Source: an uncultured Gemmatimonadales bacterium (GTDB taxonomy: Bacteria; Gemmatimonadota; Gemmatimonadetes; Longimicrobiales; Gaopeijiaceae). Taken from it: a stretch of 64,000 bases of DNA. The notes under the pieces are model-generated. The model did not search any database. It was not told the origin of the DNA and worked only from the letters and a program-made list of their open reading frames with translations. Positions 16,531 through 36,866 of this stretch are shown here, in pieces (the stretch's first letter is position 1; each line of letters begins with the position of its first letter). Position numbers and translations under genes: made by a program. The DNA is taken from NCBI GenBank assembly GCA_963809895.1, contig CAWELD010000003.1, positions 1,536,001-1,600,000 on the forward strand. Direction: 5' to 3'.

Positions 16531-19080
16531 TGAACGTGACGATGACGTGGAATCCGACGGGACTGAGCGGCCTGCTTCTGGAGACGGGGCTCAGGAGCCT
16601 CCTGCTGCTCTCTCTGGTGGCGGGCGTGGCGTTGCTGCTCCGCCGGGAGTCGGCGGCCAGCCGGCACCTGGCGTGGTTCGCGGGATTGGCGGGCGTGCTC
16701 CTCCTCCCCTTGGCGACCCTGGGGCTGCCACGATGGCACCTGCCGGTACCGGCTTCGGCGTCGGAGCATGCGGCGTCGGTGATGGGCTCACTGGCGCCGG
16801 CGCGCGGACCGGCCCCCCGAGGCGCGGCGGTGGACGCCCCGGCATCGCGGTTGGAGGCCGGGCCCCCGGTGAGCGCGGTGGCTCCGACGGCTTCCGCGCA
16901 GCGCGAATCGTCGGCGCCGCGCCCCCTCGACGCGTCGGTGGCCGCCGGCGAGGAGACGCCGCCGAGCCTCCCCCTCCCCACCCTGCTGCGCACTGGTATG
17001 GGCGATCGGCGCGGGGCTGCTCCTGGTGCGGCTCGCCGCCAACCATGTCGCGACCCGCCGCCTCGAGCGGGGCACCGTGGCCTTTCCCGACGGTCGCGTG
17101 ACCCGCGAGACGGCGGCCATGGCCACCCTCCTGGGCCTGGACCGCCCGGTGCGCATGCTGCGGGGTGCGGAAGGCACCATGCCGGTGAGCTGGGGCCTGG
17201 TGCGCGCGACGGTGCTCCTGCCTGCGGGTGCGGAACGCTGGCATCCCTCGCGCCTGAGGGCGGTGCTCCTGCATGAGCTGGCGCACGTGGCGCGCCACGA
17301 CTGCGCCACGCAGGCCCTGGCCGACGCGGCCCAGGCCCTGTACTGGCCAAACCCCCTGGCCTGGGTCGCCGCGTGGCGGCTCCGGGTCGAGCGCGAGCAT
17401 GCCTGCGACGACCGCGTGCTGGAAGCCGGTGCCCGGGCGTCGGAGTACGCCCGCGAGCTCCTGTCGCTGGCCCGGGGATTCCAGGCGGGCCCCGCGCTGT
17501 CCACGGCGGCGGTGGCCATGGCACGGCCGGGCCGCCTGGCGAGCCGGCTCCGGGCCGTGCTGGCCGAAGGGCGCCGGCGCTCGTTGTCCCGCACTGCCGC
17601 GCTGGCCGTGACGGCGGGTGCGGTGCTGCTCACCGGGGCGGCCTCGGCGGCCACGCCGGCGGTGGCGGCTCCCGCGGCCGGGCCTGCAGAGACGACCGCG
17701 GCAGCCTCCCGGACGACGCCCAGCGCTCCCGCCGCCGACCAGGCCTCGGGGCCCGCCCCGCTGGCGCTTCCGCCGCAGGCGATGACCTGCGGCATGGAAG
17801 CCACCGGGTGGCAGAGCATGTCCCACCACTCCGACGACGGCCGTGAGCGCCTGCAGTGGTCCAAGCCCGGGTGCGAGGTCGACGTGCGCGTCGAGGGTGA
17901 GGTCCGCTTCAGCGACGACTTCATGGACGTGGCGAGCCTCGGCCGCAACGCCCTGTTCCGCATCGAGGAGAACGAGGGCCGCACCGAGCGCCGTCTCGAC
18001 GTCACGCCGGGATCCGGCGGCGACCCGACCTACGAGTACCGTGTGGACGGCCGCACGGAGCCCTTCGACGCCCAGGCGCGCGCCTGGTACCAGGGCATGC
18101 TCCTGCAGGTCTTCCGGCGGGGCGGCTACATGGCCGAAGAGCGCGTCGCCGCCCTGCTCAGGACCGGCGGCGTGGACGCCGTCCTCCAGGAGCTCGACCT
18201 CATCCCCTCGGACTACGTGTCGGCGCGCTACGTCGAAGAGCTCATGCGCCAGGCCGACCTCAGCGAGGGCCAGGTCGTGCAACTGGTGGACGAGGCGAGA
18301 GACCGGGTGGACTCCGACCACTACCTGGCCGGGATCCTGACGGCGCTGGCCGAGAACCACGATCTGACCAGTCCGGTCATGGACGCCTTCCTGAGGGCGT
18401 CACGCTCGCTGGACTCCGACCACTACCGGGCCCAGGTCCTCACCACGGCGCTGGACAAGGGCACGCTGCAGACGGGACAGGTGGAGGCGCTGCTGGCGTC
18501 GGCCTCGGAGATCGACTCCGATCACTACCTGGCCCAGATCCTGGACTCGGTCGCCGAGCGCTACGCGCTGAACCCGTCCATGCGCGGCGCGTACCTGCGG
18601 GCCGTGGAGTCCATCGAGTCCGACCACTACCGCACCCAGGTGCTGTCCGGGCTCCTGGACCGCGGTGACCTGGACGCGGGCGAGCTGTCCGAGGTGCTAC
18701 GCGCCGCCGGGTCCATCGAATCCGATCACTACGTCACCGAGATCCTCAGGAAGGCCTCGACCCGGGAGCTGTCGGGCCCGCTCCAGGACGCCTACCTCGA
18801 CGTGGCCCGGGGCATCGAATCCGACCACTACAAGGCGGAGGCGCTGACCCTGCTGGTGCGGCGCGACCAGGTTTCGAGCGGGTTGTTGGCAGGCGTGCTG
18901 GACGCCACGAGCTCCATCGCGAGCGACCACTACAAGGCCGGCCTCCTGGTGGAGATCGCCCAGCGTCACACGCTGAGCGGCGACCTGCGCGACGCCTACA
19001 TGCGAGCCATGGACAGCGTCGGATCCAAGACCTACCGGGGCCGGGTGGCCGAAGCGCTCCTGGATCAGGGGGGCGACTAG
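16527..19080 (+). CDS. BlaR1-like M56 peptidase with C-terminal helical repeats (one frameshift near 16989)
   Basis: SAASRH..W N-terminus, HELAH, EREHACDD; removing one base at ~16989 joins PLPTLL to ALVWAIG. Confidence 0.85.
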
Positions 19081-19119
19081 CGTCGGCTCCGGGGGTCGTC
19101 CCCGGCGAAGTGGTAGGAA

Positions 19120-19195
19120 TGGGCGCTGAGGGATTCGAACCCCCGACCTCCTGCTTGTAAGGCAGGCGCTCTAAACCAAGCTGAGCTAAGCGCCC
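19120..19195 (-). tRNA. tRNA-Val(TAC)
   Basis: GGGCGCTTAGCTCAGCTTGGTTTAGAGCGCCTGCCTTACAAGCAGGAGGTCGGGGGTTCGAATCCCTCAGCGCCCA folds as a cloverleaf with anticodon TAC; CCA not encoded. Confidence 0.97.
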
Positions 19196-19202
19196 TCGGG
19201 GT
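19153..19202. repeat. att site, left copy (tRNA 5' half plus 7 nt leader)
   Basis: Matches 36817-36866 at 49/50 positions (19179 A vs 36843 G). Confidence 0.95.
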
Positions 19203-19260
19203 GTTTGCCGCTAATCCACGCGACAAACGGGGCTGACAAACCTAGCGGAAGTACGGGCGG

Positions 19261-19282
19261 TGTGCACGTAGCTGTGCACGTT
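19261..19282. promoter_or_regulatory. Putative integrase arm-type sites (left)
   Basis: TGTGCAC at 19261 and 19273 (12-bp period); the same arrangement occurs at 36691/36703. Confidence 0.7.
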
Positions 19283-20526
19283 CACGCCCGCTCCCGAAGC
19301 TCACCGCCGCCGAGCACGACGTTGAGCATCGTCTCGGGGTCGGCCTGCTGGTACGAGTCCTTGAGCGCCTTCGTGCTCTTCCAGCCGCCGGCCGCCGCAA
19401 CATCCACGTCGGGTAGGTGCTTCCGCTCCGTGGCCCACTTCCTTCGGTAGGCGTGCCAGAGGGAGCCGTTTTGCGGTTCGACGCCGGCCAGCTTCTCACC
19501 GGCCCTCAGCCACTTATCTGCGAGGTGGCGGGTCATGGGCTGTTCCCGGTCCTCCGGCGACGGGAACAAGGGCGCCGCGCCGATGCCCGGCCGGTCCTTG
19601 CGGATACGGTCGAGCGCAGCCCGCACCGCCGGTCCGATCGGGACGACGGTCTCGCGGTTCGTCTTGTCGGTCTCCGCTGGCCAGCGGATCGCTCCGTGGG
19701 GTCCTTCGTCCAGCAGGAGGTCTCGGTACCGCAGGGCGCACACGGCGGAGATTCGCCGGCCAGTGCCGTTCACGATGTCGAGCAGCTCGCTCAGGTAGCT
19801 CCGTTGCGCCTTTCGCTGGTCCGTCCAGCGCGCCTCCATCTCGACTTGGTCCGACACTGCCCGGATGGCTTCGTATCGGTCCTGCGTCGCCACAGGGCGC
19901 CGAGGGTTCTCTTCGTGCGGTGCGTCGAAGCCTCGGACGGGGTTCTCGCGCATGAGGTAGTGGCCCTCGGGCATGCGCCACTTCGAGGCCCAATTGAACA
20001 CCCACCGCAGCCACTTGCAGTCGGCCTCCACGGTCCGGGCGCGCACCGGCCGGGGCTTGGTGTCACCCTTGGGACGTCGGCCTCGCGCGTCGATCATGCC
20101 GGACGCCCGAGCGTCGATGAACCGCTCCCAGTCCCGCAGGGCCACGTCGTGCGGGTCCAGATCACTTCCGAGGACCCGAAGCCACATCTCGAACCGTCGC
20201 TCGTCGGCGCGCTGCTCGCGCTGGCTCTTGCGCGGCGTCCTGTGGCGCCTGTAAAGGCCGAAGACTTCACCGAGGGTGGTCTCCCCCTTCGAGTGCCGTT
20301 CATCGGCGTCAGCGACGCATGCAGCCTGCTTCAGGGCGTAGGCCTTCGCACGGTCCCGGTCCCGGTAGCCCAATGAGCGCCGAACGTGTGCTCCGGCGTC
20401 CCCTTTGTTGGGGTCCCAGTACCGGACGTACAGCGGTCCCCCCGGGGTGCGCTCGTAGACGGTGATGGTGTTCGGGCGGTCCCCCGCCGAGAACGACCAT
20501 CGCTTCCGCTTCTTCCGCTTCACCAC
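19282..20526 (-). CDS. Tyrosine integrase
   Basis: Catalytic R (GTGRRIS), K (DKT), HAYRR, GGW, Y; next to the tRNA att site. Confidence 0.92.
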   Translation of the reverse strand: MVKRKKRKRWSFSAGDRPNTITVYERTPGGPLYVRYWDPNKGDAGAHVRRSLGYRDRDRAKAYALKQAACVADADERHSKGETTLGEVFGLYRRHRTPRKSQREQRADERRFEMWLRVLGSDLDPHDVALRDWERFIDARASGMIDARGRRPKGDTKPRPVRARTVEADCKWLRWVFNWASKWRMPEGHYLMRENPVRGFDAPHEENPRRPVATQDRYEAIRAVSDQVEMEARWTDQRKAQRSYLSELLDIVNGTGRRISAVCALRYRDLLLDEGPHGAIRWPAETDKTNRETVVPIGPAVRAALDRIRKDRPGIGAAPLFPSPEDREQPMTRHLADKWLRAGEKLAGVEPQNGSLWHAYRRKWATERKHLPDVDVAAAGGWKSTKALKDSYQQADPETMLNVVLGGGELRERA

Positions 20527-20599
20527 GATCCCTCCTGATGCTGTAGGCGAGTGGCGAGAGCCTCATGCCCCCGCTCACGCCTATCCTGCGGTCCATCCT

Positions 20600-20971
20600 T
20601 CATGACGCAAGCCTCGTCTCGCGAAGCTCGGCGGCGATGTCGGGGCCGTCCTGACTCGCGGCGCCGGGGAATGAGGGGTGGTTCGGGCGGGTGGGTAGGT
20701 CGCAGCGCCGGATGCGTGGGCTCCCCGACTCGCCGGCGTTGGGGATCTTGCCTTCGGCGACTCTCTGCTGGAGCGTCGAGTACGCGTAGCCGGACTCCTC
20801 GGCGGCCTCCTGGAGCGTGAGTGACTGCGTCCGCCACGCGTGGATGGCATCGTCCAACTCGCCAGCGTAGCTGCGGGCCATGGATGCAGCGTCGTCCAGC
20901 CCCCTTCGGTCGAACGTCTCCGCCTCGTCGAGCCAGCGCTCGCATAGGTCGTGCAGGGGCTCCACGTTCAC
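20600..20971 (-). CDS. Excisionase-like HTH protein
   Basis: LTLQEAAEESGYAYSTLQQRVAEGKIP...RIRRCDL winged-helix pattern; upstream of the integrase. Confidence 0.75.
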   Translation of the reverse strand: MNVEPLHDLCERWLDEAETFDRRGLDDAASMARSYAGELDDAIHAWRTQSLTLQEAAEESGYAYSTLQQRVAEGKIPNAGESGSPRIRRCDLPTRPNHPSFPGAASQDGPDIAAELRETRLAS

Positions 20972-21186
20972 GGCGCGGGCACCGCCTCGGGCTCGGGGCT
21001 GCTATCCACTTCGGCGTCGTGACGTTGACGACGGCACCACTTTCGCGACCCGAACTGCGCCGCGCCGACTAGGTTTGCTTGAGCCTGAATGGAATCAACA
21101 TCATGGACGCGGACGCCAATCCACCTCGGTGGATCGAGGGCCTGGCGTCGCTCGCAGGGCGAATTCAACGAACCGGGTGCACTCAT
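20968..21186 (-). CDS. Small hypothetical protein
   Basis: ATGA and GTGA overlaps with both neighbours. Confidence 0.4.
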   Translation of the reverse strand: MSAPGSLNSPCERRQALDPPRWIGVRVHDVDSIQAQANLVGAAQFGSRKWCRRQRHDAEVDSSPEPEAVPAP

Positions 21187-21989
21187 GACTGCACCTTCGA
21201 GGCTTCGCACCTGGCACAGAGCGTGGCGGTTGGGCCGACTCTCGCACCGCACATGTCACAAACTGATCGCCCTCCTCTAGATGGCACCCGGAACGAGTCG
21301 TTGCGCCTCCCTTCAACGGCGCCACTGACTTCCGGCCGGCTCGCCCGCGCGCCTGCGCTAACCACACCAGTATTCCCACGATAGCGGCTGTTCTTGCCTT
21401 CATTGTCTTGGGTCTGATGCCTATGTTGCTTGGGGGTGTCGGCAAGGGGCTCCGCGGACTCCGAGCGGGGGCCGGCGCCCTGGGCTTCCTTGGGCGCCGT
21501 GGGGGGGGGTCGCTCGGACCCATCGGTATGGGTATCGGAGCATCGACGTCCGATTCGCTCGTCATTGCAGTGCGGGCACACCCCCGACTTCTTCCATCGG
21601 CCGCAATTGCCACAGGTCGGCGGCTCCACTTGGAATCGTGGTAGCCGGCGATGCGGATCAGGGTGGGGCGCCCGGTACCGGGGAAGGTCTTCCGATCAAT
21701 TTCACCGTGTTTCTCGAGCTTCTTGAGGAAGCGCGATACCTTCGATTGGGTCCAGCCCCACCTTTCTTCGAAGAAGCTGCGGGGACCCGTGGCAGGCACC
21801 TCGCGGGGTAGAGTAGCCTCCCTGCTCGCTACCGTCAGGCGCCCATACGGCCGGCGTTCGGAGGTCGACCCACGCCTCACGATAAGACACCTCATGACGA
21901 GTGGTCGACGGGTGTAATGGATGCTCTCGGTCCGAGAAGGGAGCGCGCGGAACTTTGATCCATCCGTTCTTGCCGGCGAAGCTCGTCAT
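21183..21989 (-). pseudogene. Phage replication-initiator-like HTH protein with Cys-rich zinc-ribbon C-terminus (frameshifted)
   Basis: GWIKVPR..EAWVDL..RG, then ERWGWTQSKVSRFLKKLE..TLIRIAGY in another frame, then CxxC pairs in a third frame. Confidence 0.55.
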
Positions 21990-22730
21990 GACCTTCTCCG
22001 ACTCGGGAATTCTCGTCGACATTGCTCCCGTTCACGTTGTCCTCGGTGTTGCACAGTAGACACTGCGTCGTCACTTGTCCTTCCTAATCTGAGTTTCTTG
22101 CTCCGAAAGCAGGTGAGGCACCGAGGGCCTCACTCTCCGCTCTTAGGCCTGTCCGTCGGCGCGCAGGCACCCCCGCGAGTATTCCAGAGTCCTCTTCGAC
22201 AGCCTGCCACGTTGCTGATGCATCTTGGTCCTGGGCTTGAGTCGTGGTCGGCGCGCCAACAGAGGGTTGGCGTCAGACGGATCGTAGGGACGAGTCCTCC
22301 GATTCCTCAAGGTCTTGCTGTTATACTGTGAAATCGCCTCATCTCTTACGTTGGGGTAGGGTCCCAGCAGTCCTCCGACGCCACGCTCGGCTCGGCGCGT
22401 GGGGTACCCATGACAGAAGGGGTAGCCTCGTCAGCGACTCCACCATAGAAGGGTGCGGAGCCCTCTGTTTGTCGGAGCGACTTGGGCCTTACGTTGGGCT
22501 ATGCCGGTTGACCACGATCGGTCTCTTGGTGGCGAACCACTGGCGATGAACACCGATCCCGGCTCGGATTCCTCCTTGACGTGCGTCGCAGGGGAGCGGT
22601 CCTCGAACACGCGCCTTCGTCCGCGGGGGCTGCCGATGCCGTGGTGGCGGCGTGGCCCTGCAGGTTGACATGGCCCGTGATCGGGTCAGTCTCACGAGCA
22701 CCCCTCTTCACCTCAGGAGCCTCCTCGAAC

Positions 22731-23141
22731 ATGCGACTTCTCTCCACCGCCCTGCTTGCCGCCTGCCTCTTCGCCCTCGCCTGCCGCACCACCTTCTCTC
22801 CGGGGGCGATCAACGCGCCTATGCCGGCACAGCTCGTGTCCACGGGGCTGGCCCGCGACTGGGGGTGCACGAAGCCCCAGGTTGAGAACCGAGCAAGGTT
22901 CTTGGCCGACAGCTTGGAGTACGGCCTGTACTACATTCCCGAGGTGGGCTGGGACGCGTGCGAGCTGCTCGCGCGTGATGGCCTGTGGGATGAGATCGAG
23001 GAATCAGACTCCCTGGCCGTCTGGCACTACTACGTGGCCGGGCGAGACCGGACCGTGACCCTGCGAGCCGACGAATACGGGCGATGGACGGTGGATGAAG
23101 TCGACTGGGAGGAAGGCAGAGGCCCGAACCGACGCCGCTGA
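22731..23141 (+). CDS. Putative lipoprotein
   Basis: AGGAG RBS; MRLLSTALLAACLFALAC lipobox-like signal. Confidence 0.65.
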   Translation: MRLLSTALLAACLFALACRTTFSPGAINAPMPAQLVSTGLARDWGCTKPQVENRARFLADSLEYGLYYIPEVGWDACELLARDGLWDEIEESDSLAVWHYYVAGRDRTVTLRADEYGRWTVDEVDWEEGRGPNRRR

Positions 23142-23238
23142 CGTCCCACATGGCGGGGGGCAAGGCCAATGAGCGGTTGGCTTCCGTCAGGGCGCCGGCC
23201 GGACCTGCCATCGAACCCTCGCGGGCCTCCCGAACTCA

Positions 23239-24036
23239 TCACCAAACCACCCGTTCCCATTCGCCGCCCGCCCGAGCACGACGCGCCGCGGCCACGATCG
23301 CCATTCGTTCAGCCACGGTAAGGTCATCAGAGACAACGTTCGCGGTATTCGCTGGATCGACCAGACGAGCAGTTCGGAACTCGTCCCCGAGGTAGCGAAG
23401 CACCTCTCCGAAGTTGTCAGCCACGGCCCCCGTGCGCCGTCCCCGAGTCGCGTTGAGTACCGCCAGTTCGAGTGCAAGCGACGGGAACTCGAGTCCGTGA
23501 AGTGCACGCCATATCTTCGTGAGCCGTACCTCCTCCAGCCGGCCGGAATCACGCACGAGGTTGATGTGCTTCGCCACGTCGGTCTGTGTCCAGCTATCTG
23601 CCTTTCGCCGGTACAGAGAGTGTCGGTTCACGAACCCACTCTGAATCCGGGCGGGCACGAGATCGATCTTGTGGTCCAAGACTTCCACACCGATCGAGAC
23701 GTTCTGCGCCCTGGGGCTCCAGCCCGAAAAGCCCGCCCGCTGGAACAGGGTCCAGTAGATCTGGGAAAGCGTCTCCGGGACGTCGTGTCGGACGGAGATG
23801 AACAGGTCGAGGTCCGTTTGACCTCCCACGGCGGTTCCCTTGGCGTTCGATCCGGAGACTTCGATCCCTCGTAGGTACTGTCCGCCCCACTCGCGCACCA
23901 CAGGATCGATCCATGCACGGAGCATGGCGATCGTGATCGGGCCTGCGCCGGTCGGGTAGCGCCGGAGCACCTGGCGGAGGTAGCGGTCTCCCTCAGACTC
24001 GAGCAGCAGCCCGAGGAGGCCCGAGTGCGTCGTCAT
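23239..24036 (-). CDS. Second nucleotidyltransferase (minimal CD-NTase/OAS-like)
   Basis: SGSNAKGT..TDLDLF, third Asp in IDLVP, EVRLTKIW, FPSLALEL, LVDPANTAN; TGATG coupling to nucC. Confidence 0.85.
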   Translation of the reverse strand: MTTHSGLLGLLLESEGDRYLRQVLRRYPTGAGPITIAMLRAWIDPVVREWGGQYLRGIEVSGSNAKGTAVGGQTDLDLFISVRHDVPETLSQIYWTLFQRAGFSGWSPRAQNVSIGVEVLDHKIDLVPARIQSGFVNRHSLYRRKADSWTQTDVAKHINLVRDSGRLEEVRLTKIWRALHGLEFPSLALELAVLNATRGRRTGAVADNFGEVLRYLGDEFRTARLVDPANTANVVSDDLTVAERMAIVAAARRARAGGEWERVVW

Positions 24037-24791
24037 CAGCCGTTTCGGAGCTCCTCGCTCCAGATATCGAGGTCCATCGCGAGCGCAGTCCCAAGGCGCT
24101 GGAGTTCACGCATTAGTGCTGTGAAGAAGCCCACGAGCGCGGTGTCCTGATCGTACACGACCATCTCTCCGCCGTCCGTCGGCAGTTCAAACGCGCCGGC
24201 CTGTAGGGCTACCCCCAGCTGCAGCTCATCCTGTCCGTGGAGCTCCTCAAGGACGTTGCGGAACGTCTCCCCGAACGGATCGGCGTAGCTGGAGTCTACG
24301 GCCAAGATGCCACCAAGGATCAACTGGTCCGCCGGGTCCTTCCCCTTCTTCGGCTCGCCCTCGTAGGTGTAAATCGGTCCCGAAGTCCGGGCCAACGCTC
24401 GCACTGACGCCACTTTTTCCGCCGTCTCCCGAAGGGTGGCGCTGGAGATCTCCTGCTTGGCGTCGAACACAGCGTAGACACTCTCCGCTGGAACGAAGCA
24501 GGCCGTGCCCGCTTGGAAGAGAAACGGGGAGTACTGAGCGTCGTGGATGATGACGTCGAGCTGTCCAGAGACTCCACCCGCGTGATCTACGACGAACCCG
24601 CTCTGGACGGAGTACCTTCGCGGGAGGTAGGACGCGAGCATGTCTCGCCACCGCAGCTCGGCAGCAGCACCCTTCTCACCCTGATGAGGCATGATCCGAC
24701 GGTTGGCCGACAGTGCGGCCTCCATCTCGTCCTGCTTGGCCCGCATCAACTCGGCCACCGTAGGGGCCCGATCAAGGCGCTCAAGCGTCAT
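24036..24791 (-). CDS. nucC: NucC-family cyclic-oligonucleotide-activated endonuclease (DUF6602)
   Basis: H.GEKG..E.W..ML..YLP.RY, QLDVII.D.QYSPF.F, VPAESVYAVF(D)AK, KVASVR.L.RTS, GT..MD...W C-terminus, colinear with NucC as recalled. Confidence 0.9.
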   Translation of the reverse strand: MTLERLDRAPTVAELMRAKQDEMEAALSANRRIMPHQGEKGAAAELRWRDMLASYLPRRYSVQSGFVVDHAGGVSGQLDVIIHDAQYSPFLFQAGTACFVPAESVYAVFDAKQEISSATLRETAEKVASVRALARTSGPIYTYEGEPKKGKDPADQLILGGILAVDSSYADPFGETFRNVLEELHGQDELQLGVALQAGAFELPTDGGEMVVYDQDTALVGFFTALMRELQRLGTALAMDLDIWSEELRNG

Positions 24792-25239
24792 CCTCGTCTC
24801 CGTCCTTGCTGGGAAACTCCTGGTGAGAGCTCGGCCCGAGCCAGGCGCCGACCTGCTTCCAGACCTCGTAGTACTGCAGCCACAGTGCGGCCCACATCAC
24901 GACTGTGCCGGCAAGCGACTCAACGTCCTTCCAACGCCACTCCTTGGGCCAGTGGAGGCACAGGCTGCCGTCAGGCCATCGATGCGGCGCATCCGGATCG
25001 AGCCGTGGGCAGTCCACAAATACGCTCGGTGGTCCCCGCCGTTCGTACACGACCCGAATCCTGTACGAGTCGGAGTGGGGGCTGGGCTGTAGGTCTCCCG
25101 TCCACGTCACACGCCGGTCCCTACCCACCCCCGCTTCCAAACCCGGGAAGTCCCGCGCCATCGCCGCGATTTGCCCCCGCGGGTCCCGCGGCCGGCGATA
25201 CTGGCCCGGGCCGTGCCCGAGACTACTTCTCCGGCCCAT
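24781..25239 (-). CDS. Prokaryotic E2 ubiquitin-conjugating-like protein (CBASS type II short)
   Basis: WTGDLQP..Y.I.V.Y, PHRWPDGSLCL (catalytic Cys), WLQYYE.W..G.W.G; ATG 25239 overlaps the cyclase stop. Confidence 0.8.
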   Translation of the reverse strand: MGRRSSLGHGPGQYRRPRDPRGQIAAMARDFPGLEAGVGRDRRVTWTGDLQPSPHSDSYRIRVVYERRGPPSVFVDCPRLDPDAPHRWPDGSLCLHWPKEWRWKDVESLAGTVVMWAALWLQYYEVWKQVGAWLGPSSHQEFPSKDGDEDDA

Positions 25240-26269
25240 GGAAGGTCGTCGGCCTGCTTTGAGACGATCCAGAGGTCGCCGTCGCCGAGATGGCACCGGA
25301 CGACGAGACGAATGCCTTTCCGGGCGTGGCGGCTACAGCGGCTGCGAGCGCTTCGTTCTCCACTTCGGCCTCCGACGGCCAGAGCGTCGGGTAGACCTTC
25401 CGCCAGACCGCATGCGCGTCCTCGTCGCAGTCCGCGTCGACTGCCTTCCGCGCGGCCGCCGCCGCTTCACGAACCCTCCGCATGAACGCCTCGAACTCGT
25501 CTCGTCTCCAGCCAGAGGAGATCACTGTGTGGAGCTGGGGGTCCAGCACGCGTGGCACACCATCCCCATCATCCATCAGCTTCTCCCACTTCGACGCCAC
25601 ATGCTCGAAGAAGTGGCAGACGTTCTGCGCGGTGGACCGCCCTTCGAGGACCACGTTCCCCCCGACGACCGAGTGGTAGACGATCACCTCCAGGAGGTAG
25701 CTCTTCGGGCGCCGGTACACCATCTGCTCGTCCCGCCACGCCTTCACCAGCTTGATCAGCGGGATGAGCTTCTTGGCGTGATCCGCGTTGGCGGCCGAGA
25801 GACTCTTCCCGTAGCCGAGGGGGTCGGAGTTGATCCACTCCTGCTTGCTGCGATCCGGTATCCGCAGGGGAGCCTCAAGGCCCTCGTCCGCGACGGCCCC
25901 GACGATATCCAGGCAGAGGTCGTGAGCCGGGAAGTCAAGCCGGATCGAGCGCCGCTGCGGCGAGGCCTCTGCGGAGGCATCCGGATACTCGCTGAGGACG
26001 GTCTTCAGCTCACGGAGAACGCTCTCCGGGGTCCGGTCGAGGGCCTCATCCGGCAGGAACACCAGCGTATCGACGTCCTTGATCTCGCCGATCGCCGTGT
26101 GTCGTCCATACGACCCGATCAAACGTGAGTGTGGCGACGCCGTCTCGAAGTCGTGTTCCTTGAGCCACTCCCGAACCTCTCCGGGCAACCGCTGAGCGGC
26201 CGTGAGCCGGTCGTCAGATGGATTGACCTTCTTGAGCAGGGCCGAGAACGCGAAACGGGATGAAGCCAC
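25223..26269 (-). CDS. CD-NTase cyclic oligonucleotide synthase (CdnD-like)
   Basis: GSYGRHTAI..DVD, LDIV, PLRIPDR..EW..SDP, KLVKAWR, PKSYLLE; flexible tail ending TTFHG-PEK; GGAGG RBS. Confidence 0.9.
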   Translation of the reverse strand: MASSRFAFSALLKKVNPSDDRLTAAQRLPGEVREWLKEHDFETASPHSRLIGSYGRHTAIGEIKDVDTLVFLPDEALDRTPESVLRELKTVLSEYPDASAEASPQRRSIRLDFPAHDLCLDIVGAVADEGLEAPLRIPDRSKQEWINSDPLGYGKSLSAANADHAKKLIPLIKLVKAWRDEQMVYRRPKSYLLEVIVYHSVVGGNVVLEGRSTAQNVCHFFEHVASKWEKLMDDGDGVPRVLDPQLHTVISSGWRRDEFEAFMRRVREAAAAARKAVDADCDEDAHAVWRKVYPTLWPSEAEVENEALAAAVAATPGKAFVSSSGAISATATSGSSQSRPTTFHGPEK

Positions 26270-26398
26270 GGCGAACCTCCAGCGGGATCGAAGACACCCA
26301 GAACTGGAGATCTGCCCGCGTGCTGGGGAGAGGCTCCGCAGCGCAGGCCGCTACCGTCGAGTGTCGAAATGGTCTGTGGGCACACTCGTACCCTTCGC

Positions 26399-26471
26399 AA
26401 TGTGGCGTGAAAGCCGCGCGAGGTCAACCCTATGCAGTGGTATGAACTTAGGAGGCCACAATATGTTGTGG
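26399..26471 (-). promoter_or_regulatory. Putative CBASS promoter with tandem NrdR-box-like operators
   Basis: Minus strand TTGACC(26427-26422)-N17-CACATT(26404-26399); 16-mers CCACAATATGTTGTGG (26456-26471) and CAACCCTATGCAGTGG (26425-26440), 31 bp apart. Confidence 0.55.
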
Positions 26472-26547
26472 TACTTCGGCCCCTGTTCGGGAGCGCGGCA
26501 TCGTCGTCAAGGCCAGGAGATTCGCGAACACCGTTTCAAGGACTTTC

Positions 26548-26736
26548 TCAACGGGCGGGGTTCAAGAACTTTCCCGTCCCGGCATCCGCCTTGGGCTTGA
26601 TGAGGTCTCTTTCGTGCGCCAGCTCGTCGAGGTCCCGTTGCGTGGCCGAGAGGGCCTTGTCGGCCTGGACCATTTCCCGGTAAAGCTGCTCGCCGGGCCG
26701 AACCACGTCGATCGGCAGGAAGTAGGTGCGGGCCAT
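26548..26736 (-). CDS. Small coiled-coil hypothetical protein
   Basis: ATG directly after the upstream TAG; GGAGG RBS inside the upstream gene. Confidence 0.55.
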   Translation of the reverse strand: MARTYFLPIDVVRPGEQLYREMVQADKALSATQRDLDELAHERDLIKPKADAGTGKFLNPAR

Positions 26737-27000
26737 CTAGGCCACCTCCCCGTCGGGTCCAAACGCAATGTCCAAGAACCTGGCGGCCTGCCGAAATCCC
26801 CGAGAGATGGCATCGTCTTGAGCCTGTTTCTCCCGTTCGAGCATCTCGGCCTGGTGCTCGACATGCGCCGCACCGTTCTCCAACAGCTCGCGCACCCATT
26901 CCGACGTCCACTTCCCGAGCAGGGACGCCGCATGATGAACGCGGTCGTACATCTCGGGGGTCATCCTGACCGTCAAGGTCTCTGACTTCGTTCTCGCCAT
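26737..27000 (-). CDS. Ribbon-helix-helix DNA-binding protein
   Basis: KSETLTVRMTPEMYDRVHHAASLLGKWTSEWVRELL RHH pattern; AGGAGG RBS. Confidence 0.7.
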   Translation of the reverse strand: MARTKSETLTVRMTPEMYDRVHHAASLLGKWTSEWVRELLENGAAHVEHQAEMLEREKQAQDDAISRGFRQAARFLDIAFGPDGEVA

Positions 27001-27174
27001 CTGTGGTGGCCCTCCTGTCTGCAATGCGAGTCGCGGACGCCGCACCTCGTGTGCGACTCGTCACGGCGACCCGCCCAGGTCGTTCGCCTCCCAATCTGAA
27101 GATCCGACCGGAATGGGCAACGCAGATGTCGGCACATCCGAAATACGTTGCGCGCACCTGCGCGTCAGGCCGGG

Positions 27175-27217
27175 TTGCTTCGATGTTGAAGCGTACGTAT
27201 AATTCATTATACTACGC
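27175..27217 (+). promoter_or_regulatory. Sigma70-like promoter overlapping a palindrome (possible recombinase site)
   Basis: TTGCTT(27175)-N17-TATAAT(27198); inverted repeat GTATAAT-TC-ATTATAC flanked by GCGTA/TACGC. Confidence 0.65.
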
Positions 27218-27246
27218 ACCGACACTGCGACGAGGGGCCCCCTAGC

Positions 27247-28257
27247 ATGTCCGGGAAGCAACTGGAGATCGGCAACCTTCTGACCGACGCCAAGACGCCC
27301 TCGCTGGCGAGCGACGGAGGCTCGTTGGAGCAGCTCGCGAAGACCTTCAAAGATGGCCTCAGCGAGAACACGCGGCGCGCCTACGCACAGGATCTCCGGG
27401 ACTGCGCTCACTTCCTGGCGCGCCATTCCGGCGAGGTCGACCCGGACGTCTCCGAGCTGCCCGAGGGTGCGGCGTACGTGGCCCGGAAGCTTCTGCCCAA
27501 TGGCCAGGGCATGGCCAACGCCCTTGTAATCGGGTACCGGAGCTATCTTGGGGAGAAAGGCCGGGCCCCCGCCACGGTCAACCGCCGCCTCGCGGCAGTG
27601 CGCTCGCTGGTGAAGGCGGCCCGGTTGTTCGGGATCGTGACGTGGAAGCTGGAGGTCTCCAGCGTGAGGTCGCGGTCCTACCGGGACACGTCGGGTCCAG
27701 GGCTCAAGGGCTTCAAGAGAATGATGGCCAAGGCCAGGGCCGACGACACAGCCAAGGGTGTGCGCGACCGCGCAATCCTCCGGCTGCTATGGGACCTGGC
27801 CCTCCGCCGGTCCGAGGTCGTGGGGCTCGATGTCGAGGACGTCGACCTGGAGCGCGGGCGCCTCATGGTCCACGGGAAGGGGCGAGGCGAGCCTGAATTG
27901 ATGACACTACCGGACGGGACGAAGGCCGCGCTCGGGCGGTGGCTGGAGGTCCGAGGCGAGCACGATGGGGCCCTCTTCACGAACTTCGACCGGGCCAGTA
28001 AGGGCGACGGGCGCCTGAGCGGCACCTCGGTCTACCGGATGGTATGCCAGCGCGGAGAAGATGCGGACGTGAAGGACGTGCGCCCCCATGGCATCCGGCA
28101 CGCTGCCATCACGCACGCGCTGGACAAGTTCGACGGCGACGTTCGGACGGTATCGAAGTTCAGCCGACACCGGGACGTGCGCGTGCTCATGACCTACGAT
28201 GACAACCGCGAAGACCTCGGCGGCGAGGTCGCGTGTACGGTGGCGGCTGCGGTGTAG
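27247..28257 (+). CDS. XerC/D-like tyrosine recombinase (resolvase)
   Basis: SAM-like N-terminus (SENTRRAY, ATVNRRLAAVRS), LRRSE, HGKG, HGIRH, SRH, Y. Confidence 0.92.
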   Translation: MSGKQLEIGNLLTDAKTPSLASDGGSLEQLAKTFKDGLSENTRRAYAQDLRDCAHFLARHSGEVDPDVSELPEGAAYVARKLLPNGQGMANALVIGYRSYLGEKGRAPATVNRRLAAVRSLVKAARLFGIVTWKLEVSSVRSRSYRDTSGPGLKGFKRMMAKARADDTAKGVRDRAILRLLWDLALRRSEVVGLDVEDVDLERGRLMVHGKGRGEPELMTLPDGTKAALGRWLEVRGEHDGALFTNFDRASKGDGRLSGTSVYRMVCQRGEDADVKDVRPHGIRHAAITHALDKFDGDVRTVSKFSRHRDVRVLMTYDDNREDLGGEVACTVAAAV

Positions 28258-28389
28258 GAGGAGGATGTCGAGCGTGCGGCTCGCTCCAAAGCTGAACAGG
28301 GCGGCCAGCTCCTGCTACGTCTCGGAATGTTCTCTCCGTGCATGCCGCCAAGAACAGCCCCCCCAATTCGGTGAGGATGGAGTCTTCAT

Positions 28390-29790
28390 CCGAGAGCGAG
28401 CGCATGCGAAAGGGGGCGCGAGTCGGGATGTTGTCTGAGGTCACCACGCGTCCGGCCTTCCAGCGTCGGAAGAACACGGGCTCTCCACCCCACCCAAGGA
28501 AGGAGGCCGGGCCGGCAGAGAACCGCTCCCAGAGCACATCGCCTTCTCTTCGAGACGGTTCCGTAGCCATGTCGCGATGGGACATGCTGCATGAAGCCGT
28601 TGACGACGCCGGCGACCGCTCTGGTGGTCGGCGAGCTAGCCATGTGAGATCCACGGTCGCCAGGCCCTCATCATCTATCCACGGTCTGATCGGGGGTGAC
28701 GCGTCCTGCACAGCCTCGGCTAGTTCCTCGACCGCCTTTCGTGGCACTGCCAATACGCTTGGCAGTCTTGCGGACCGCGATGATGCCATGGCCACCGTGT
28801 ACGGAAACTCCCTGTGCTGGAGGGCGTCCCTAATCGGATAGAAGCTCTCGATGGCTTTCGTAGTCCGGTCACTCGACACGAACTCCGCTAGGCTTGAGTT
28901 GTGTTGACCGATCAGCTTCATTGCCCGTGATTCGCCCTTCCTGGGAAGGCGAAGGGTCCGCTCATGCTTCCTGAGATTCAGGGAGTACACATCGTCGGCG
29001 AGAGCGGCCAAGTCGTCAAACGCCCCGGTGGCCAGCATGTACTGGAATGCCAGATGGAAGAGCGCGCGAGCCTCCGTGTCGTTGTTCGCGGTCTTGAGCG
29101 AGGCGATTTCGGCTGCATCCGTGGTGCGACACAGGAAGTCCAATCGCCTTGCGAGCCCCGAAAGCCGCCTCTCGCGTCTGCCTCCCCCAAAGAACCATGC
29201 CCGCCTGAAATCGGGGAACACGAGGTCCTTTCGGAAGAGGTAGTAGAAACCTTCGTTACCCCAAACCCCGGGTTGGCCTCGAAGTGTTCACGCGCGACGC
29301 ATAGGAGGCGAAGATGGTTCAACAGTTCAGGCCAGGTGCAATAGATGGCGTACCTCCGGCCCGACCTCGGTAATGACGACACGGCCGCATGAGACCCCAC
29401 GACGAGATCCACATGGCGCCTCAGGAGGACCGCGAGGTATTCGATTGCCGCACCCTCCGATCCCTCGCCCTCAAGGCTACGAAAGTGCTCATAGGTCCGG
29501 TGCGGACCTAGCAAGGAGCGCGACGTGGGCCGGTGCAACACCACATGGCCCTCGTCGACATGAACCTCCCCGATCGTGGCTTGATTCCCTGCCAAGGGCC
29601 TTGGGAGGTCTTGGTGCCCCGGTATGAGGCAAAGGTCGATGAAGTCGTAGTCGGCCAACTCCGCCAACCGACCGATGGCATCGTCGGACATGCCGACGAG
29701 GGCGGTGGGCCCGACGATCACCGACACCTCGGGTTCGACCCATCGCACCCGATCGTATGGATTACCTGTATCAGTACTGAAGCGGGTCAT
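28390..29790 (-). pseudogene. HEPN-motif protein split by frameshifts; end coordinate approximate
   Basis: ORFs 28978-29850 and 28187-29221 join near 29255; RDALQH (RxxxxH) at ~28814-28831. Confidence 0.5.
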
Positions 29791-29989
29791 TCCTCTCGAA
29801 CGGGTCGAAGGTGGTTTCAGGTGACTTCCGATAGCCGACATCCGGTCCAAGCATCGCAGCCCGCGCCCTCCGCTGTCGAGCAGTTCCCGCGTTGCCCTGA
29901 CCCTCAGCAGCCCTACCCTAGAGTGCGTAAAGACGCATTATCGTACCCAAAGATAAGCCGAATCTGGCAAATTACAAGCACATTCGAGG

Positions 29990-30780
29990 TGATCCCCATC
30001 GGTGGCAATCTGACCCGCGGGGAACGCGCCGCCCGGCGTGACGCATGGGCCAAGGAAGACGGGTTCCCCACCTGGCACGAATACGAGGGCTACGCGGAGG
30101 GACTTCAGGGCCACGAGGTCTGCGGCTCCCCGAAGACCAAGGAGGAAGCGCCAGGACTTCCCGGGACCGGGTCCGAAACGACCCTGTCTCCGCTATCCGG
30201 TCACAGGAATGACGCGCTGCAAGCTCCATGGCGGCGCTTCCTTGGTCGGATCCGCCAACCCGCACTTCCGGCACGGGAAGCGAGAGTCGCTTCGTCGGGC
30301 TCCCTGACAAGATCCGGGAACGGGCCGAACAGCTCTTCGAGGACCCCAACCTCATCTCGCTCCGCGACCGGATCGCCGTGAACGACGCCCGCGAGCGCGA
30401 GCTCTGGGAGACGCTGGACAACGGAACGTCCGTGGAGTACTGGGAGAGGGCGCGGAACGCCCTCGAGGACATGCGGCGAGCCAGGGCCAACCGGGATGCG
30501 GGGCCGCCTCGCCGAAGCGTTAGACGCGGCTGGACGCGGTCGACGGATCAAGCGCTGCGACAGGAAAGCCATCTGGAGCCAGATTCGCGAGGTCCAGGAG
30601 CACGGGCGGAAGCTTCGTCGGGAGGAACGGCAGCTCATGGAGGCCGCCAGTCACTACCTCAGGGCCGACGAAGCTAAGCTGTTCGCGATCCGGATTCTGG
30701 ATATGGCCATCGAGAGCATCCGGCAGGTCGCTACCGTCGGCGAGCAAGAAGGCGATCTCGGACCTACTCGAAGCGCGTGG
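29990..30780 (+). pseudogene. HGGxSTG-domain phage protein (terminase small-subunit-like), multiply frameshifted; boundaries approximate
   Basis: EVCGS.., PCLRYP..TRCKLHGGAS..NPHFRHG, then a helical region spread over three frames. Confidence 0.55.
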
Positions 30781-31569
30781 AGAGCGCTACTGGAGTCAAG
30801 CCGGGGGCTGACCCCTTCATGGGCTTCGTCGAGATCCAGGGGTCCCTCGGCGGGTTATGCCGTATGGTGCTCCGATCCGGCGCGCGGTCATATCGGAATT
30901 GGCAAACGGCCGAACCCGAACCCACAGAGGTAGCGGCACGGCTCTTCGGCCGGGTGGATGTCGCCGCAGGTCTCGCAGATGGCGAGCCCGAGGCGCTCCG
31001 CAAGGTCCGAGTCCTTCTCAAGAGCGTCGGCAACGCGGCCCCACGCCTCGACGCCTATCTCCATGATTCCAACGCCGCCGTCACTGACACCGTTCTGCAT
31101 GATGCTCCTCGGTAGGGGGAGGAAGGTCACTACCTTCCATCCATAGCAGCCGAGGTATCAGGTCTACAAGGTGTAGCCCGTGAAGGCTGGGCCGCCCCCG
31201 CAATTCCCGAAGACCCCAACTCTTGAGCGTATGGGATCATGAACAAGATGAAGAGATACCACGGCAGAGACGCTCATGGGTGCGGTAGGCGGCGCGTGAC
31301 AGCGGTAGCCGATCCTTCTTCGAGGCGGTCGAGTTCGGTACCCTTCGCTGGCTTCCGTGGTTGAGTCGCCACCGCCTGTTCGAACCCATCGGTGACATGC
31401 CGCCCACTAAGTACGAAGAGGCATTCGTTCGCGCTCAATACGCTCCCGCAGAGCTATTGAGACCCAACCGAAACTGTCTCCGGTGAACCCGGAGGGATTC
31501 ATCTTCGCTGATTATGGGACGCTTGCCCCGCCCAGTAGCGGACGCCATGCCCCCATGATGCCTATCCCT

Positions 31570-31776
31570 ACCCTGGTCCAGGTCGGCCTGCTTGATCAAG
31601 CTGCGGATCGTCTGGGCCGAGGGCTCGAACCCTAGACAACTCCTCAGGTGTACGACCTGCTCGGACCAGCTCGACCATCTGCTCCCGAAACTCGGGAGGG
31701 TACGGCGATCTCGATCTCGCATGATGAACTCCTTTCTCCGTAGAGATCTGGTGTCCACCAAACCGGGTCAACTCCA
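31570..31776 (-). mobile_element. IS3-family remnant (left IR plus truncated orfA)
   Basis: TGGAGTTGACCCGGTTTGGTGGACACC terminal IR at 31776-31750; YPPEFREQMVELVRAG..FEPSAQTIR..KQADLD with frameshifts; no orfB. Confidence 0.85.
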
Positions 31777-31803
31777 CTCTTCGCCCTCCGGCTCTCCACC
31801 CAC

Positions 31804-33012
31804 TCACCTAAGAGTGAACCGCACCAGCGCAGCCACACCCACCTCATCGACTTGGTACCCCCAGCCAGTCCCATTATTGATGTATCTCGGATAGAGCCCC
31901 GGCGGCGCCTTGAAACGCGCCAGTAGGACCCCGTCAGGAGCCAGAAGGTCAAACGTCGTACTGTCCCCGCGGGCAAACGGATGGGGGTCCAAGTCGGCAC
32001 GCTCAACCATGAGCGTTCCGCCGGATATCACTGCGAGCGACCGGACCTTTGGGCGGTACGCAGGCACAGGGAGCTTCAGCACCGCCGGGACAATGACGTC
32101 GGTAAGTGGGCACCCCGAGGTAGCGGAGCGAAACTGTTCACACCTCTTCCTCTCGCGCTCAACGTATTCATCGATCAATTGGGGAGTGACGGGTAAAGGG
32201 GGAGCATCCACCCTCAGAAGTCTCTCCAAGTTGCCCTTGGCGCTTCGCACGGCAATCTCGTAGCCACCGCCTCGACTGATGAAGACTCTGGCCTCATCGT
32301 CAAGCGTTGCCACGGGCGGGGATGAGAGAAGAGGGCCTACCACGTAACCGTGAACGACTCGAGCGTCATGACCGTACGCAAATAGCTCACGGACGAGCGT
32401 GGTGGCAGGCTGCGCGGGATCTACCCGATGAAGCTCTATCACGCCGCCAAGACCACTCATGTCCAATGCGGCAACGGTGGCGAACCAACCGTCCTGTGTC
32501 GCGTACACACGGACGAGATACCTTGGACCACCCGATCCGAACGGAACTCCCACGCTCCCAAGGTAGGTTCCTCGCGATGAATAGAAATGGGCGCCGCGCG
32601 AGTCGACGACTGCGACCGTGTCCCGGTGTACCGCCAAGCTTACCGGTCCATCAAATTCTCCCGGTCCCATGCCCCTCCTCCCCCATCCCGTGAGGAATTC
32701 TCCATCACGACTGAATACATAAACTCGGGCATCGAGCCCGTCCAAGACAAAGACCCTTCCGGTCCGCGGCGCGACTTGAACATCCGTGATGGAGCCGAAG
32801 TAACCCTGTCTCGCATCGTCTCGGAACGAATCAACACTCGCACTCACCGTCAACACAGGGAACGTCTCGGGTTCGGCATGCCATTCGCTGATCCGCACCC
32901 CACCGCTATCGACGACCGTGGCCTTGGCCGAACGCCCCAAAGGCCTACTGCAGGCGGTCAACGCGGAGGACGCCACCAGGCAGCAGGTAAGCGACAATCG
33001 GGTGGCTAACAT
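31804..33012 (-). CDS. 6-bladed beta-propeller (NHL-like) lipoprotein
   Basis: LTAC lipobox; GRVFVLD..VYVF..GEFL..WGRRGMGPGEF motif. Confidence 0.8.
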   Translation of the reverse strand: MLATRLSLTCCLVASSALTACSRPLGRSAKATVVDSGGVRISEWHAEPETFPVLTVSASVDSFRDDARQGYFGSITDVQVAPRTGRVFVLDGLDARVYVFSRDGEFLTGWGRRGMGPGEFDGPVSLAVHRDTVAVVDSRGAHFYSSRGTYLGSVGVPFGSGGPRYLVRVYATQDGWFATVAALDMSGLGGVIELHRVDPAQPATTLVRELFAYGHDARVVHGYVVGPLLSSPPVATLDDEARVFISRGGGYEIAVRSAKGNLERLLRVDAPPLPVTPQLIDEYVERERKRCEQFRSATSGCPLTDVIVPAVLKLPVPAYRPKVRSLAVISGGTLMVERADLDPHPFARGDSTTFDLLAPDGVLLARFKAPPGLYPRYINNGTGWGYQVDEVGVAALVRFTLR

Positions 33013-33121
33013 CAGGGATGCACCAAGAGACGGTGATTCGAAATGGGCGATGAGGCCCCCTCGCCACATTGGGCAGGGGGCCTCAAACGCAGGACCTCAT
33101 CTGGAACGGTCTCCTGCTAGG

Positions 33122-33595
33122 TCAGTCGAAGCGTTCGGCTGTAGTTCGCATGCGCTGAACGCTCTTGGTTATGATGGCCGGTGAGAGCGACAGGCTTGCC
33201 ACAACGGCGGAACGATCACAGGACAACAATTGCAGCGCGTGCCGCTCCTCGTTCACGGAAATCCAAGGTCCCAAGCGCGGGATCAACGCGACGAGTTCTT
33301 GAGTATCTCCAATCTCCGCTGCGTGCTGAGCCGCGCGATAAGCGACACCAAGGACGAAATCGTCTTGGGCGGGATTGCACGGCTGATAGTGGATAGGAAA
33401 CTCCCCGACGTCCGGCTCGCAACTGTCATGAGGGTACTCCAGCGCCCCCGAGGGGATCAGCGGAGCCCAATGGTAGCCAGAGCCACAACCATCCGCCACC
33501 TTGTTTGTGCAGAATGATCCTTGAGCGGACAGAGTCGCTGGCACGAACACGAGAACGAATGCTCCAAACCGCGATAGCCATGGACATACTCGCAT
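33122..33595 (-). CDS. Small secreted Cys/His-containing protein
   Basis: AAGGAGG RBS, signal peptide ending LSA-Q, HDSC..HYQPC, NEERHALQLLSC. Confidence 0.7.
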   Translation of the reverse strand: MRVCPWLSRFGAFVLVFVPATLSAQGSFCTNKVADGCGSGYHWAPLIPSGALEYPHDSCEPDVGEFPIHYQPCNPAQDDFVLGVAYRAAQHAAEIGDTQELVALIPRLGPWISVNEERHALQLLSCDRSAVVASLSLSPAIITKSVQRMRTTAERFD

Positions 33596-33634
33596 GGCGT
33601 CCTCCTTTAGAAAGGGATGAAAAAGGACGAGGCC

Positions 33635-36816: not shown

Positions 36817-36866
36817 GCTTGTAAGGCAGGCGCTCTAAACCAGGCTGAGCTAAGCGCCCTCGGGGT
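36817..36866. repeat. att site, right copy (displaced 5' fragment of tRNA-Val)
   Basis: GCTTGTAAGGCAGGCGCTCTAAACCAGGCTGAGCTAAGCGCCCTCGGGGT; 49/50 match to 19153-19202. Confidence 0.95.

Follow-up and report, generated by a model that had tools for sequence, protein, structure and literature searches.

Two cyclases and a single NucC: an E2-CBASS operon with a possible second, type I-derived input in an uncultured Gemmatimonadales bacterium

The systems known as CBASS, for cyclic oligonucleotide-based antiphage signalling, are usually pictured as having a single cyclase, a single signal and a single effector, and are classed by their accessory genes. What, then, is the role of a second intact cyclase in an operon with a single effector? 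The question is raised by a 64,000-nucleotide (nt) stretch of DNA from an uncultured Gemmatimonadales bacterium (GCA_963809895.1, contig CAWELD010000003.1, positions 1,536,001-1,600,000 of the forward strand), here called the window. Four co-oriented, overlapping genes on its minus strand encode a cGAS/DncV-like nucleotidyltransferase (CD-NTase; Cyc1), an E2 protein, the endonuclease effector NucC and a second CD-NTase (Cyc2). The reading favoured here, to which we give about an even chance, is that two differently controlled cyclases feed one NucC activated by cyclic tri-AMP (cA3).

The identity of the four genes is clear. Cyc1 (25223..26269, minus strand) is a 348-amino-acid (aa) CD-NTase with a GTG start, matched by Pfam SMODS at 1.8e-16 and by PADLOC Cyclase PDLC00822 at 4.7e-59. 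E2 (24781..25239, minus strand) is matched by PADLOC E2 PDLC00876 at 9.9e-39. NucC (24036..24791, minus strand) is a 251-aa PD-(D/E)xK endonuclease effector (PADLOC NucC PDLC00745, 6.2e-75; Pfam DUF6602, 4.6e-27), and Cyc2 (23239..24036, minus strand) is a 265-aa minimal CD-NTase that PADLOC Cyclase PDLC00803 matches over its full length at 1e-75. The PADLOC scores of all four proteins are far beyond chance and agree with a first-pass annotation, made from the letters of the DNA, that had proposed a CBASS-like operon in which an E2 and NucC stand together with two different nucleotidyltransferases. In NCBIfam, both cyclases match generic CBASS cyclase models only below cut-offs, and E2 and NucC receive no names.

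The junctions, read directly from the DNA, confirm the gene positions and overlaps as first annotated. The Cyc1 stop and the E2 start overlap by 17 nt (ATGGGCCGGAGAAGTAG), the E2 stop and the NucC start by 11 nt (ATGACGCTTGA), and the NucC stop and the Cyc2 start form TGATG, with one base in common and no intergenic space. This last junction suggests translational coupling from NucC to Cyc2. The open reading frame (ORF) of E2 is listed as 24781-25296; its start is most likely the ATG at 25239, giving 152 aa, because the homologue in a related locus (L001; loci from our scans carry L numbers) begins MGR too and the PADLOC E2 profiles match from about 20 residues past this ATG. A scan of 22500-27300, uninformative for a high-G+C organism, returned no sigma-70 promoter near the operon on the minus strand and 0 intrinsic terminators against 2.6 expected.

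Both cyclases retain the GS...DxD...D triad that had been noticed in the first and last genes: G52-S53, D65/D67 and D121 in Cyc1, and G62-S63 (SGSN, 61-64), D75/D77 and D125 in Cyc2. These residues are invariant in the 32-sequence alignment made for each family. The operon also holds a nucleotide-activated effector, NucC, whose coding region overlaps those of both neighbours.

Cyc1 is CdnD-like, as first proposed. Its closest solved chain is Bacillus cereus CdnD (BcCdnD; 9sa4, 9.5e-20, residues 7-308), followed by Pseudomonas aeruginosa CdnD (PaCdnD) and Enterobacter cloacae CdnD (EcCdnD), all of them clade D cyclases. In the accessible text of PMC13424991, BcCdnD is a clade D enzyme that makes cA3; it differs from Cyc1 in working with Cap2/Cap3 and Cap4 and in its lid residues (T150/H155 vs S148/Y153), and Cyc1 reads KDVDT and LDI where that text gives PDVDI and LDL. 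The C-terminal tail of Cyc1 runs ...TTFHG345, followed by PEK. G345 belongs to the motif T-x-[FY]-[HY]-G; all 32 sequences have this glycine, with 0-6 variable residues behind it.

Cyc1 is regularly accompanied by E2. A metagenome scan gave 134 Cyc1 relatives, 80 of which were used for locus counts: E2 lies after Cyc1 in 70 loci, that is, in all with enough DNA, the other 10 of the 80 contigs ending within 300 nt. The effectors in these Cyc1-E2 loci vary, being NucC in 32 and otherwise 1TM, SAVED-TIR or SAVED-nuclease proteins. The window E2 finds Serratia marcescens E2 (SmE2; 8hsb_B, 9.6e-10), and its ...SLCLHWP cysteine falls opposite the one in ...RLCLFLP of SmE2, which we take to be the SmE2 catalytic residue. 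The 152-aa protein matches only E2 models and carries neither an E1 domain nor JAB; PADLOC models for Cap2/Cap3 find no match among the operon genes or the 13 other ORFs of the island that carries the operon. By its sequence, the Cyc1-E2 pair is an E2-CBASS (type II short) module.

A known system of this kind is Serratia marcescens CdnG-E2-Cap5 (8hsb/8yjy). Like the window, it has a cyclase followed by a stand-alone E2, no E1 or JAB, and a glycine near the cyclase C-terminus; it differs in having a clade G cyclase where Cyc1 is clade-D-like, Cap5 where the window has NucC, and no tail-less second cyclase after the effector. Clade G makes up 73.65% of E2-CBASS cyclases according to the accessible part of PMC12948482, which cites 616 E2-CBASS operons from the Millman data set. 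In the Serratia system, as far as the excerpts of two reports go, E2 cuts behind the C-terminal glycine of the cyclase and links the cyclase covalently, through thioester and isopeptide links, into poly-cyclase chains that activate it (bioRxiv 10.1101/2022.05.25.493364; PMC12948482). By analogy, the window E2 would cut the Cyc1 tail after G345, remove PEK and link Cyc1 covalently, and Cyc1 would be restrained or primed by E2. Three-gene Cyc1-E2-NucC relatives with no second cyclase exist (L081, L082, L110, L123 and L135/136), and this module is therefore self-sufficient, which bears out the earlier suggestion that gene 1 and NucC could already form a complete circuit.

One Cyc1 relative stands in another setting: behind the Cyc1-E2 pair of L092 (314-5067) lie genes of Cas10-like and RAMP type in place of a CBASS effector. 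Likewise, in L073 (2846-6741) a lone Cyc2 relative lies beside a Cas10b gene. The two loci may be links of CBASS cyclases to type III CRISPR loci.

Is Cyc2 an enzyme of the same kind? The first-pass annotation had likened it to 2'-5' oligoadenylate synthetases (OAS) from four motifs, SGSNAKGT, EVRLTKIW, PSLALEL and DPANTAN, all of which are present in the translation. The likeness does not hold beyond a common Pol-beta nucleotidyltransferase superfamily and GS...DxD core. A profile of the Cyc2 family matches Escherichia coli MS115-1 CdnC (EcCdnC) at 2.5e-13, BcCdnD at 5.4e-11 and PaCdnD at 4.4e-8, against 1.6e-3 for OAS2, over 34 residues near the GS loop, and 0.13 or worse for OAS1; in PADLOC, too, the protein falls in cyclase family PDLC00803. 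The single sequence of Cyc2 finds nothing in the PDB at 0.01, and Pfam gives it sub-threshold nucleotidyltransferase matches only. An AlphaFold model (pLDDT 92.6, pTM 0.86) leads to the same assignment: among the Foldseek matches listed, EcCdnC comes first (2.7e-13) and PaCdnD has a TM of 0.75-0.78 at a root-mean-square deviation of about 3 Å, and the listed matches comprise CD-NTases, NF90/NF45 and CCA-adding enzymes, with no OAS among them.

Cyc2 is predicted to make cA3. In clades C and D, according to the accessible text of PMC13424991, cA3 makers (BcCdnD, PaCdnD, EcCdnC) combine a small residue at the start of XGSX with Thr in lid-1 and His in lid-2, and synthesis of cyclic AMP-AMP-GMP (cAAG) goes with Q/N-GS and a lid-2 Gln. 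Cyc2 has all three cA3-type determinants: SGSN, T152 in lid-1 and H157 in lid-2, the last two aligned to the Thr and His of BcCdnD. Its C-terminus, ...RVVW, has no glycine tail. At the N-terminus, the window Cyc2 (residues 1-13, 23998-24036) and 7-8 of 15 members of its subclade, including P0002-P0007 and P0011, share an extension of 12-13 residues with a G-G-L-L-like motif. Cyc2 proteins of type I systems lack this extension, and in the window Cyc2 its modelling is of low confidence.

The company kept by Cyc2 relatives points to NucC. The family has 1507 homologues, mostly of about 252 aa. A genome scan, with one genome per species, gave 396 loci with a relative, and the best 80 of these were counted. 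In 67 of the 80, the gene directly downstream of Cyc2, on the same strand, is NucC, and the NucC and Cyc2 matches overlap in L017 as well; 9 of the 80 have no NucC match, L028 and L068 have NucC on the other strand, and L001 has the window order. Members of the family serve as cyclase in a widespread type I CBASS of two genes, the other being NucC, and Cyc2-type enzymes therefore partner NucC in their own right. The first-pass annotation had allowed that the fourth gene might not be co-conserved with CBASS loci; the association with NucC in 67 of 80 loci speaks for co-conservation. It had also treated Cyc2 as the extra enzyme. A second cyclase is indeed real, but either cyclase could bear that label, since PDLC00803 is normally partnered with NucC.

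The window locus itself does not have the form of a type I pair: NucC precedes Cyc2 and is of the E2-module lineage, and Cyc1 and E2 are present. In known type I systems of a small cyclase with NucC, which resemble the window in having a Cyc2-family cyclase with cA3-type determinants and NucC, the cyclase comes before NucC. XpCdnC03-NucC, an operon named in excerpts of bioRxiv 10.1101/2023.05.21.541620, pairs NucC with a small cyclase that may be of the Cyc2 family. Type III CBASS (E. coli MS115-1 CdnC-HORMA-TRIP13-NucC and P. aeruginosa CdnD-HORMA-NucC; 6p80, 6p82, 6p7o) supplies the closest solved relatives of Cyc2 and NucC and signals to NucC through cA3, with one cyclase where the window has two; PADLOC finds neither HORMA nor TRIP13 in the operon or among the 13 other island ORFs.

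The match of the window NucC with E. coli MS115-1 NucC (6p7o, 4.7e-37) covers residues 13-249 and places the PD-(D/E)xK residues, in IIHD and DAK, opposite those in VVFD and EAK. According to the accessible text of bioRxiv 10.1101/694703, cAAA is a strong activator of NucC and cAAG a weak one, and assembly of trimers into hexamers with DNA cleavage, driven by cA3, is known for E. coli and Vibrio metoecus NucC. Its ancestry was traced in a quick IQ-TREE run on 96 NucC proteins, in which supports are written with an asterisk. The window NucC forms a 100* clade with those of L001, L081 and L082. A further 17 NucCs, from Cyc1-E2 operons, are sister to this clade (98*), and the 70 NucCs of Cyc2 pairs fall elsewhere in the tree. 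Since NucC belongs to the E2-module lineage and not with the NucCs of Cyc2 pairs, Cyc2 looks appended to a complete three-gene system. In the simplest history, a complete Cyc1-E2-NucC operon looks to have gained a Cyc2-type gene at its 3' end; loss of Cyc2 in L081 and L082 is equally possible because the NucC tree has no known root. The corresponding tree for Cyc2, also of 96 proteins, puts the window protein in a 99* clade of 16 rows (the window, L001 and 14 metagenome proteins). All 14 full-length members of this subclade retain GS, DxD, D125 and T152, and 13 of the 14 retain H157, which suggests selection on catalysis.

Is the layout peculiar to the window? Among the 32 NucC-bearing Cyc1 loci, L086 and L102 end too early, leaving 30 that can be assessed. 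A further cyclase follows NucC in 21 of these, and none does in the other 9 (L081, L082, L110, L123, L124, L130, L135, L136 and L157). The order cyclase-E2-NucC-cyclase, whose recurrence the first-pass annotation had proposed as a check, is thus found well beyond the window. Not Cyc2 but another cyclase fills this place in 20 of the 21: about 310 aa long and 27-35% identical to Cyc1, it has PDLC00822 as its best model and stops about 40 residues short of the Cyc1 tail. In L120 a PDLC00823-type cyclase (TGSY/T/H) stands two genes past NucC, and tblastn finds a like arrangement in genome G176. The last slot is thus held by at least three unrelated cyclase families (PDLC00803, PDLC00822-like and PDLC00823-like), and with such non-orthologous enzymes a generic signal-making role fits better than a bespoke protein partner. 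The gene between NucC and the TGSY/T/H-type cyclase of L120 (2659-4423) is of the 4-HFC-P synthase family (PF04476, 5.3e-39).

The 38 loci with other effectors have further cyclases only in L116/L117 (one sequence), where a PDLC00822-type enzyme and then Cyc2 lie behind a helix-turn-helix gene. Among Cyc2 loci, L165 (G272:C253, 611-3987) encodes Cyc2, a 473-aa cyclase and then a SAVED-PD-(D/E)xK effector, a two-cyclase operon with a different effector. Together with L013, L062 (with a NucC fragment) and L028, it is one of the loci where a Cyc2 gene has another CBASS cassette next to it. In the sister clade, NGSY and THPKRQ (T-H-P-x-x-Q) are present in the second cyclases of L098, L101, L103, L107, L111, L113, L115 and L131, and L116 (5970-6956) likewise has NGSY with T-H-P-x-x-Q. 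The counterpart of this pattern in EcCdnD, the E. cloacae cAAG synthase, is QGSI with THPlaQ.

How might such an operon work? On the favoured reading, Cyc1 would act under the control of E2, and Cyc2, from a type I CBASS family and appended behind NucC, would act as in type I systems, without E2. We infer that both cyclases would make 3'3'3'-cyclic tri-AMP upon phage infection, and that this signal would assemble NucC trimers into active hexamers, leading to DNA destruction and abortive infection. Two controls could widen the range of phage cues, or the alarm could survive a phage block of one input.

Several points weigh against this reading. The product of Cyc1 is not predictable with confidence: its specificity positions (IGSY, lid-1 Ser148 and lid-2 Tyr153) fit neither the His nor the Gln rule, and cA3 is proposed for it from the effector alone. 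The second cyclases of the sister clade may be of cAAG type while NucC prefers cA3, and a common signal may not be general. Products and defence phenotype are predictions from sequence. The count of 21 in 30 is inflated by near-copy contigs, the distinct loci being roughly 14 with four genes and 8 with three. Three of the 14 metagenome Cyc2 relatives match a Cyc1 relative in longest-contig size (7519, 7297 and 351140), which hints at a shared operon from contig size and not from DNA context. Besides the window, one genome locus has the four-gene operon, L001 in an Acidobacteriota metagenome-assembled genome (209-3183), and this copy is decayed: its Cyc1 has a frameshift and a gap near residues 210-226, and an in-frame deletion removes the GS loop of its Cyc2. 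E2 and NucC of L001 look intact, and assembly error could account for the damage. With both cyclases damaged, L001 is ruled out as an independent intact copy. A 323-aa gene, unrelated in appearance, is convergent on Cyc2 in L001.

The appeal to E2 raises the possibility that the two cyclases form one regulated unit: E2 would join the processed C-terminal glycine of Cyc1 to a Cyc2 lysine, or Cyc1 and Cyc2 would assemble into a complex. Within the cyclase chain driven by E2, the tail-less Cyc2 would serve as acceptor, as base of the chain or as a co-activated partner. The activating poly-cyclase chains of the Serratia system, as excerpted above, favour it. So does the lack of a Cyc1-type tail in every second cyclase examined, and the G-G-L-L-like N-terminal extension could be a docking element. 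The strongest argument against such a unit is the variety of the last slot, since at least three unrelated cyclase families are hard to square with a specific interface; moreover, Cyc2-family enzymes pair with NucC in most loci without any E2. A prediction of the Cyc1-Cyc2 complex scored 0.00, which counts neither way on binding. We consider this explanation quite unlikely. An explanation that asks for no integrated role at all, with Cyc2 as the leftover of an adjacent type I CBASS minus its NucC or as a defence-island hitch-hiker, is decidedly improbable. CBASS modules do cluster and shuffle, Cyc2 does lie beside other cassettes in the four loci named above, and the L001 copy is decaying. Against passive juxtaposition stand the TGATG stop-start coupling to NucC, the intact catalytic residues in all 14 full-length members of the 16-row subclade, and the occupation of the same slot in 21 of 30 relatives. 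Divergence between the window and L001 is also alike across genes, with identities of 69% for Cyc2, 72% for NucC and 75% for Cyc1.

The first-pass annotation had leaned towards two signals, and the products could indeed differ, the second being a weak agonist, a competitor, a brake, a decoy for sponges or nucleases, or a signal to an outside target. Cyc1 and Cyc2 differ at all three specificity positions (IGSY, S148 and Y153 vs SGSN, T152 and H157), the NGSY/THPKRQ pattern of the sister clade matches a cAAG synthase and NucC is weakly activated by cAAG, and the phage protein Acb2 sequesters cyclic trinucleotides (PMC10312549, accessible part). The window Cyc2, however, has exactly the determinants of cA3 makers and comes from a family whose usual partner is NucC, and the Cyc1-E2-NucC loci with no second cyclase imply that the Cyc1 product is a NucC agonist too. 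There is also no second receptor gene in the operon, and PADLOC finds no other defence protein at E<=1e-4 among the 13 other island ORFs, its single weak match being mad1 at 5.2e-4. Two nucleotides are hardly probable at this locus, and the idea may still hold for the sister clade with its cAAG-type determinants. A broader claim would make dual-cyclase machines the rule among E2-CBASS operons with NucC: an E2-conjugated clade-D-like cyclase and a tail-less second one would be functionally wired, through E2 attachment of one to the other or through gating of NucC by two trinucleotides, cA3 and a cAAG-like signal. Either wiring would give a prokaryotic multi-input hub that computes on two phage cues and lies outside the current CBASS types. 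This claim is unlikely in our view.

The layout is of interest as an E2-controlled cyclase and a free cyclase around one NucC. If the favoured reading of two differently controlled inputs is true, it would show several sensors converging upon a single effector in bacteria; if the cyclases are merely redundant, it would be a modest extension of the CBASS catalogue. In animals, several cGAS-like receptors converge on one STING, an analogy only, with no homology of wiring implied. The comparison touches on the abstract of 10.1101/2023.05.08.539652. The operon bears on CD-NTase activation, as a single operon offers two enzymes for comparison on the same phages. It bears likewise on the role of E2, as Cyc1 has a glycine tail and Cyc2 none, and on host resistance to phage sponges and nucleases aimed at the signal. 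Every part comes from a known family, and both E2-CBASS and type I Cyc2-NucC are established kinds of system; their combination appears new. A search of the full-text literature, outside which the main surveys fell (Millman 2020, Burroughs 2015) and to which a prior mention may thus have escaped, found no description of a cyclase-E2-NucC-cyclase operon; in the accessible text of bioRxiv 10.1101/2023.05.21.541620, "two CD-NTases" is meant in another sense.

Where did the operon come from? It lies on a 17.66-kb island whose ends are marked by the two copies of a 50-nt direct repeat. The left copy (19153..19202), a putative attachment (att) site, lies over the 5' part of a tRNA-Val gene (19120-19195, minus strand; ARAGORN) and is identical to the right copy (36817..36866, also putative att) at 49 of 50 positions. 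The pair came from a repeat search of the whole window; a search confined to 19050-34000 gave no att candidate. A tyrosine integrase gene (19282..20526, minus strand; Pfam Phage_integrase, 9.5e-10) adjoins the tRNA-Val gene, and a second integrase (27247-28257) and a NikA-like gene (26737-27045) lie inside the island, most other ORFs of which have no family match. G+C content is 0.60-0.67 within the island as against 0.70-0.77 to its left. Among 400 other genomes from the phylum, 5 have a Cyc1 relative, and none was found in the five same-genus genomes searched. The operon is horizontally acquired cargo, because it lies in a tRNA-Val island with integrases and lower G+C and Cyc1 is rare in the phylum.

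Two repeat arrays lie elsewhere in the window. To the left of the island, a gene on the plus strand (17026-19080) encodes an M56/BlaR1-type peptidase homologue whose C-terminal half carries seven tandem 102-nt (34-residue) repeats (18306-18938) with a conserved S-D-H-Y motif. Further left, positions 718-902 hold three tandem copies of a 61-62-nt unit that are 69-73% alike.

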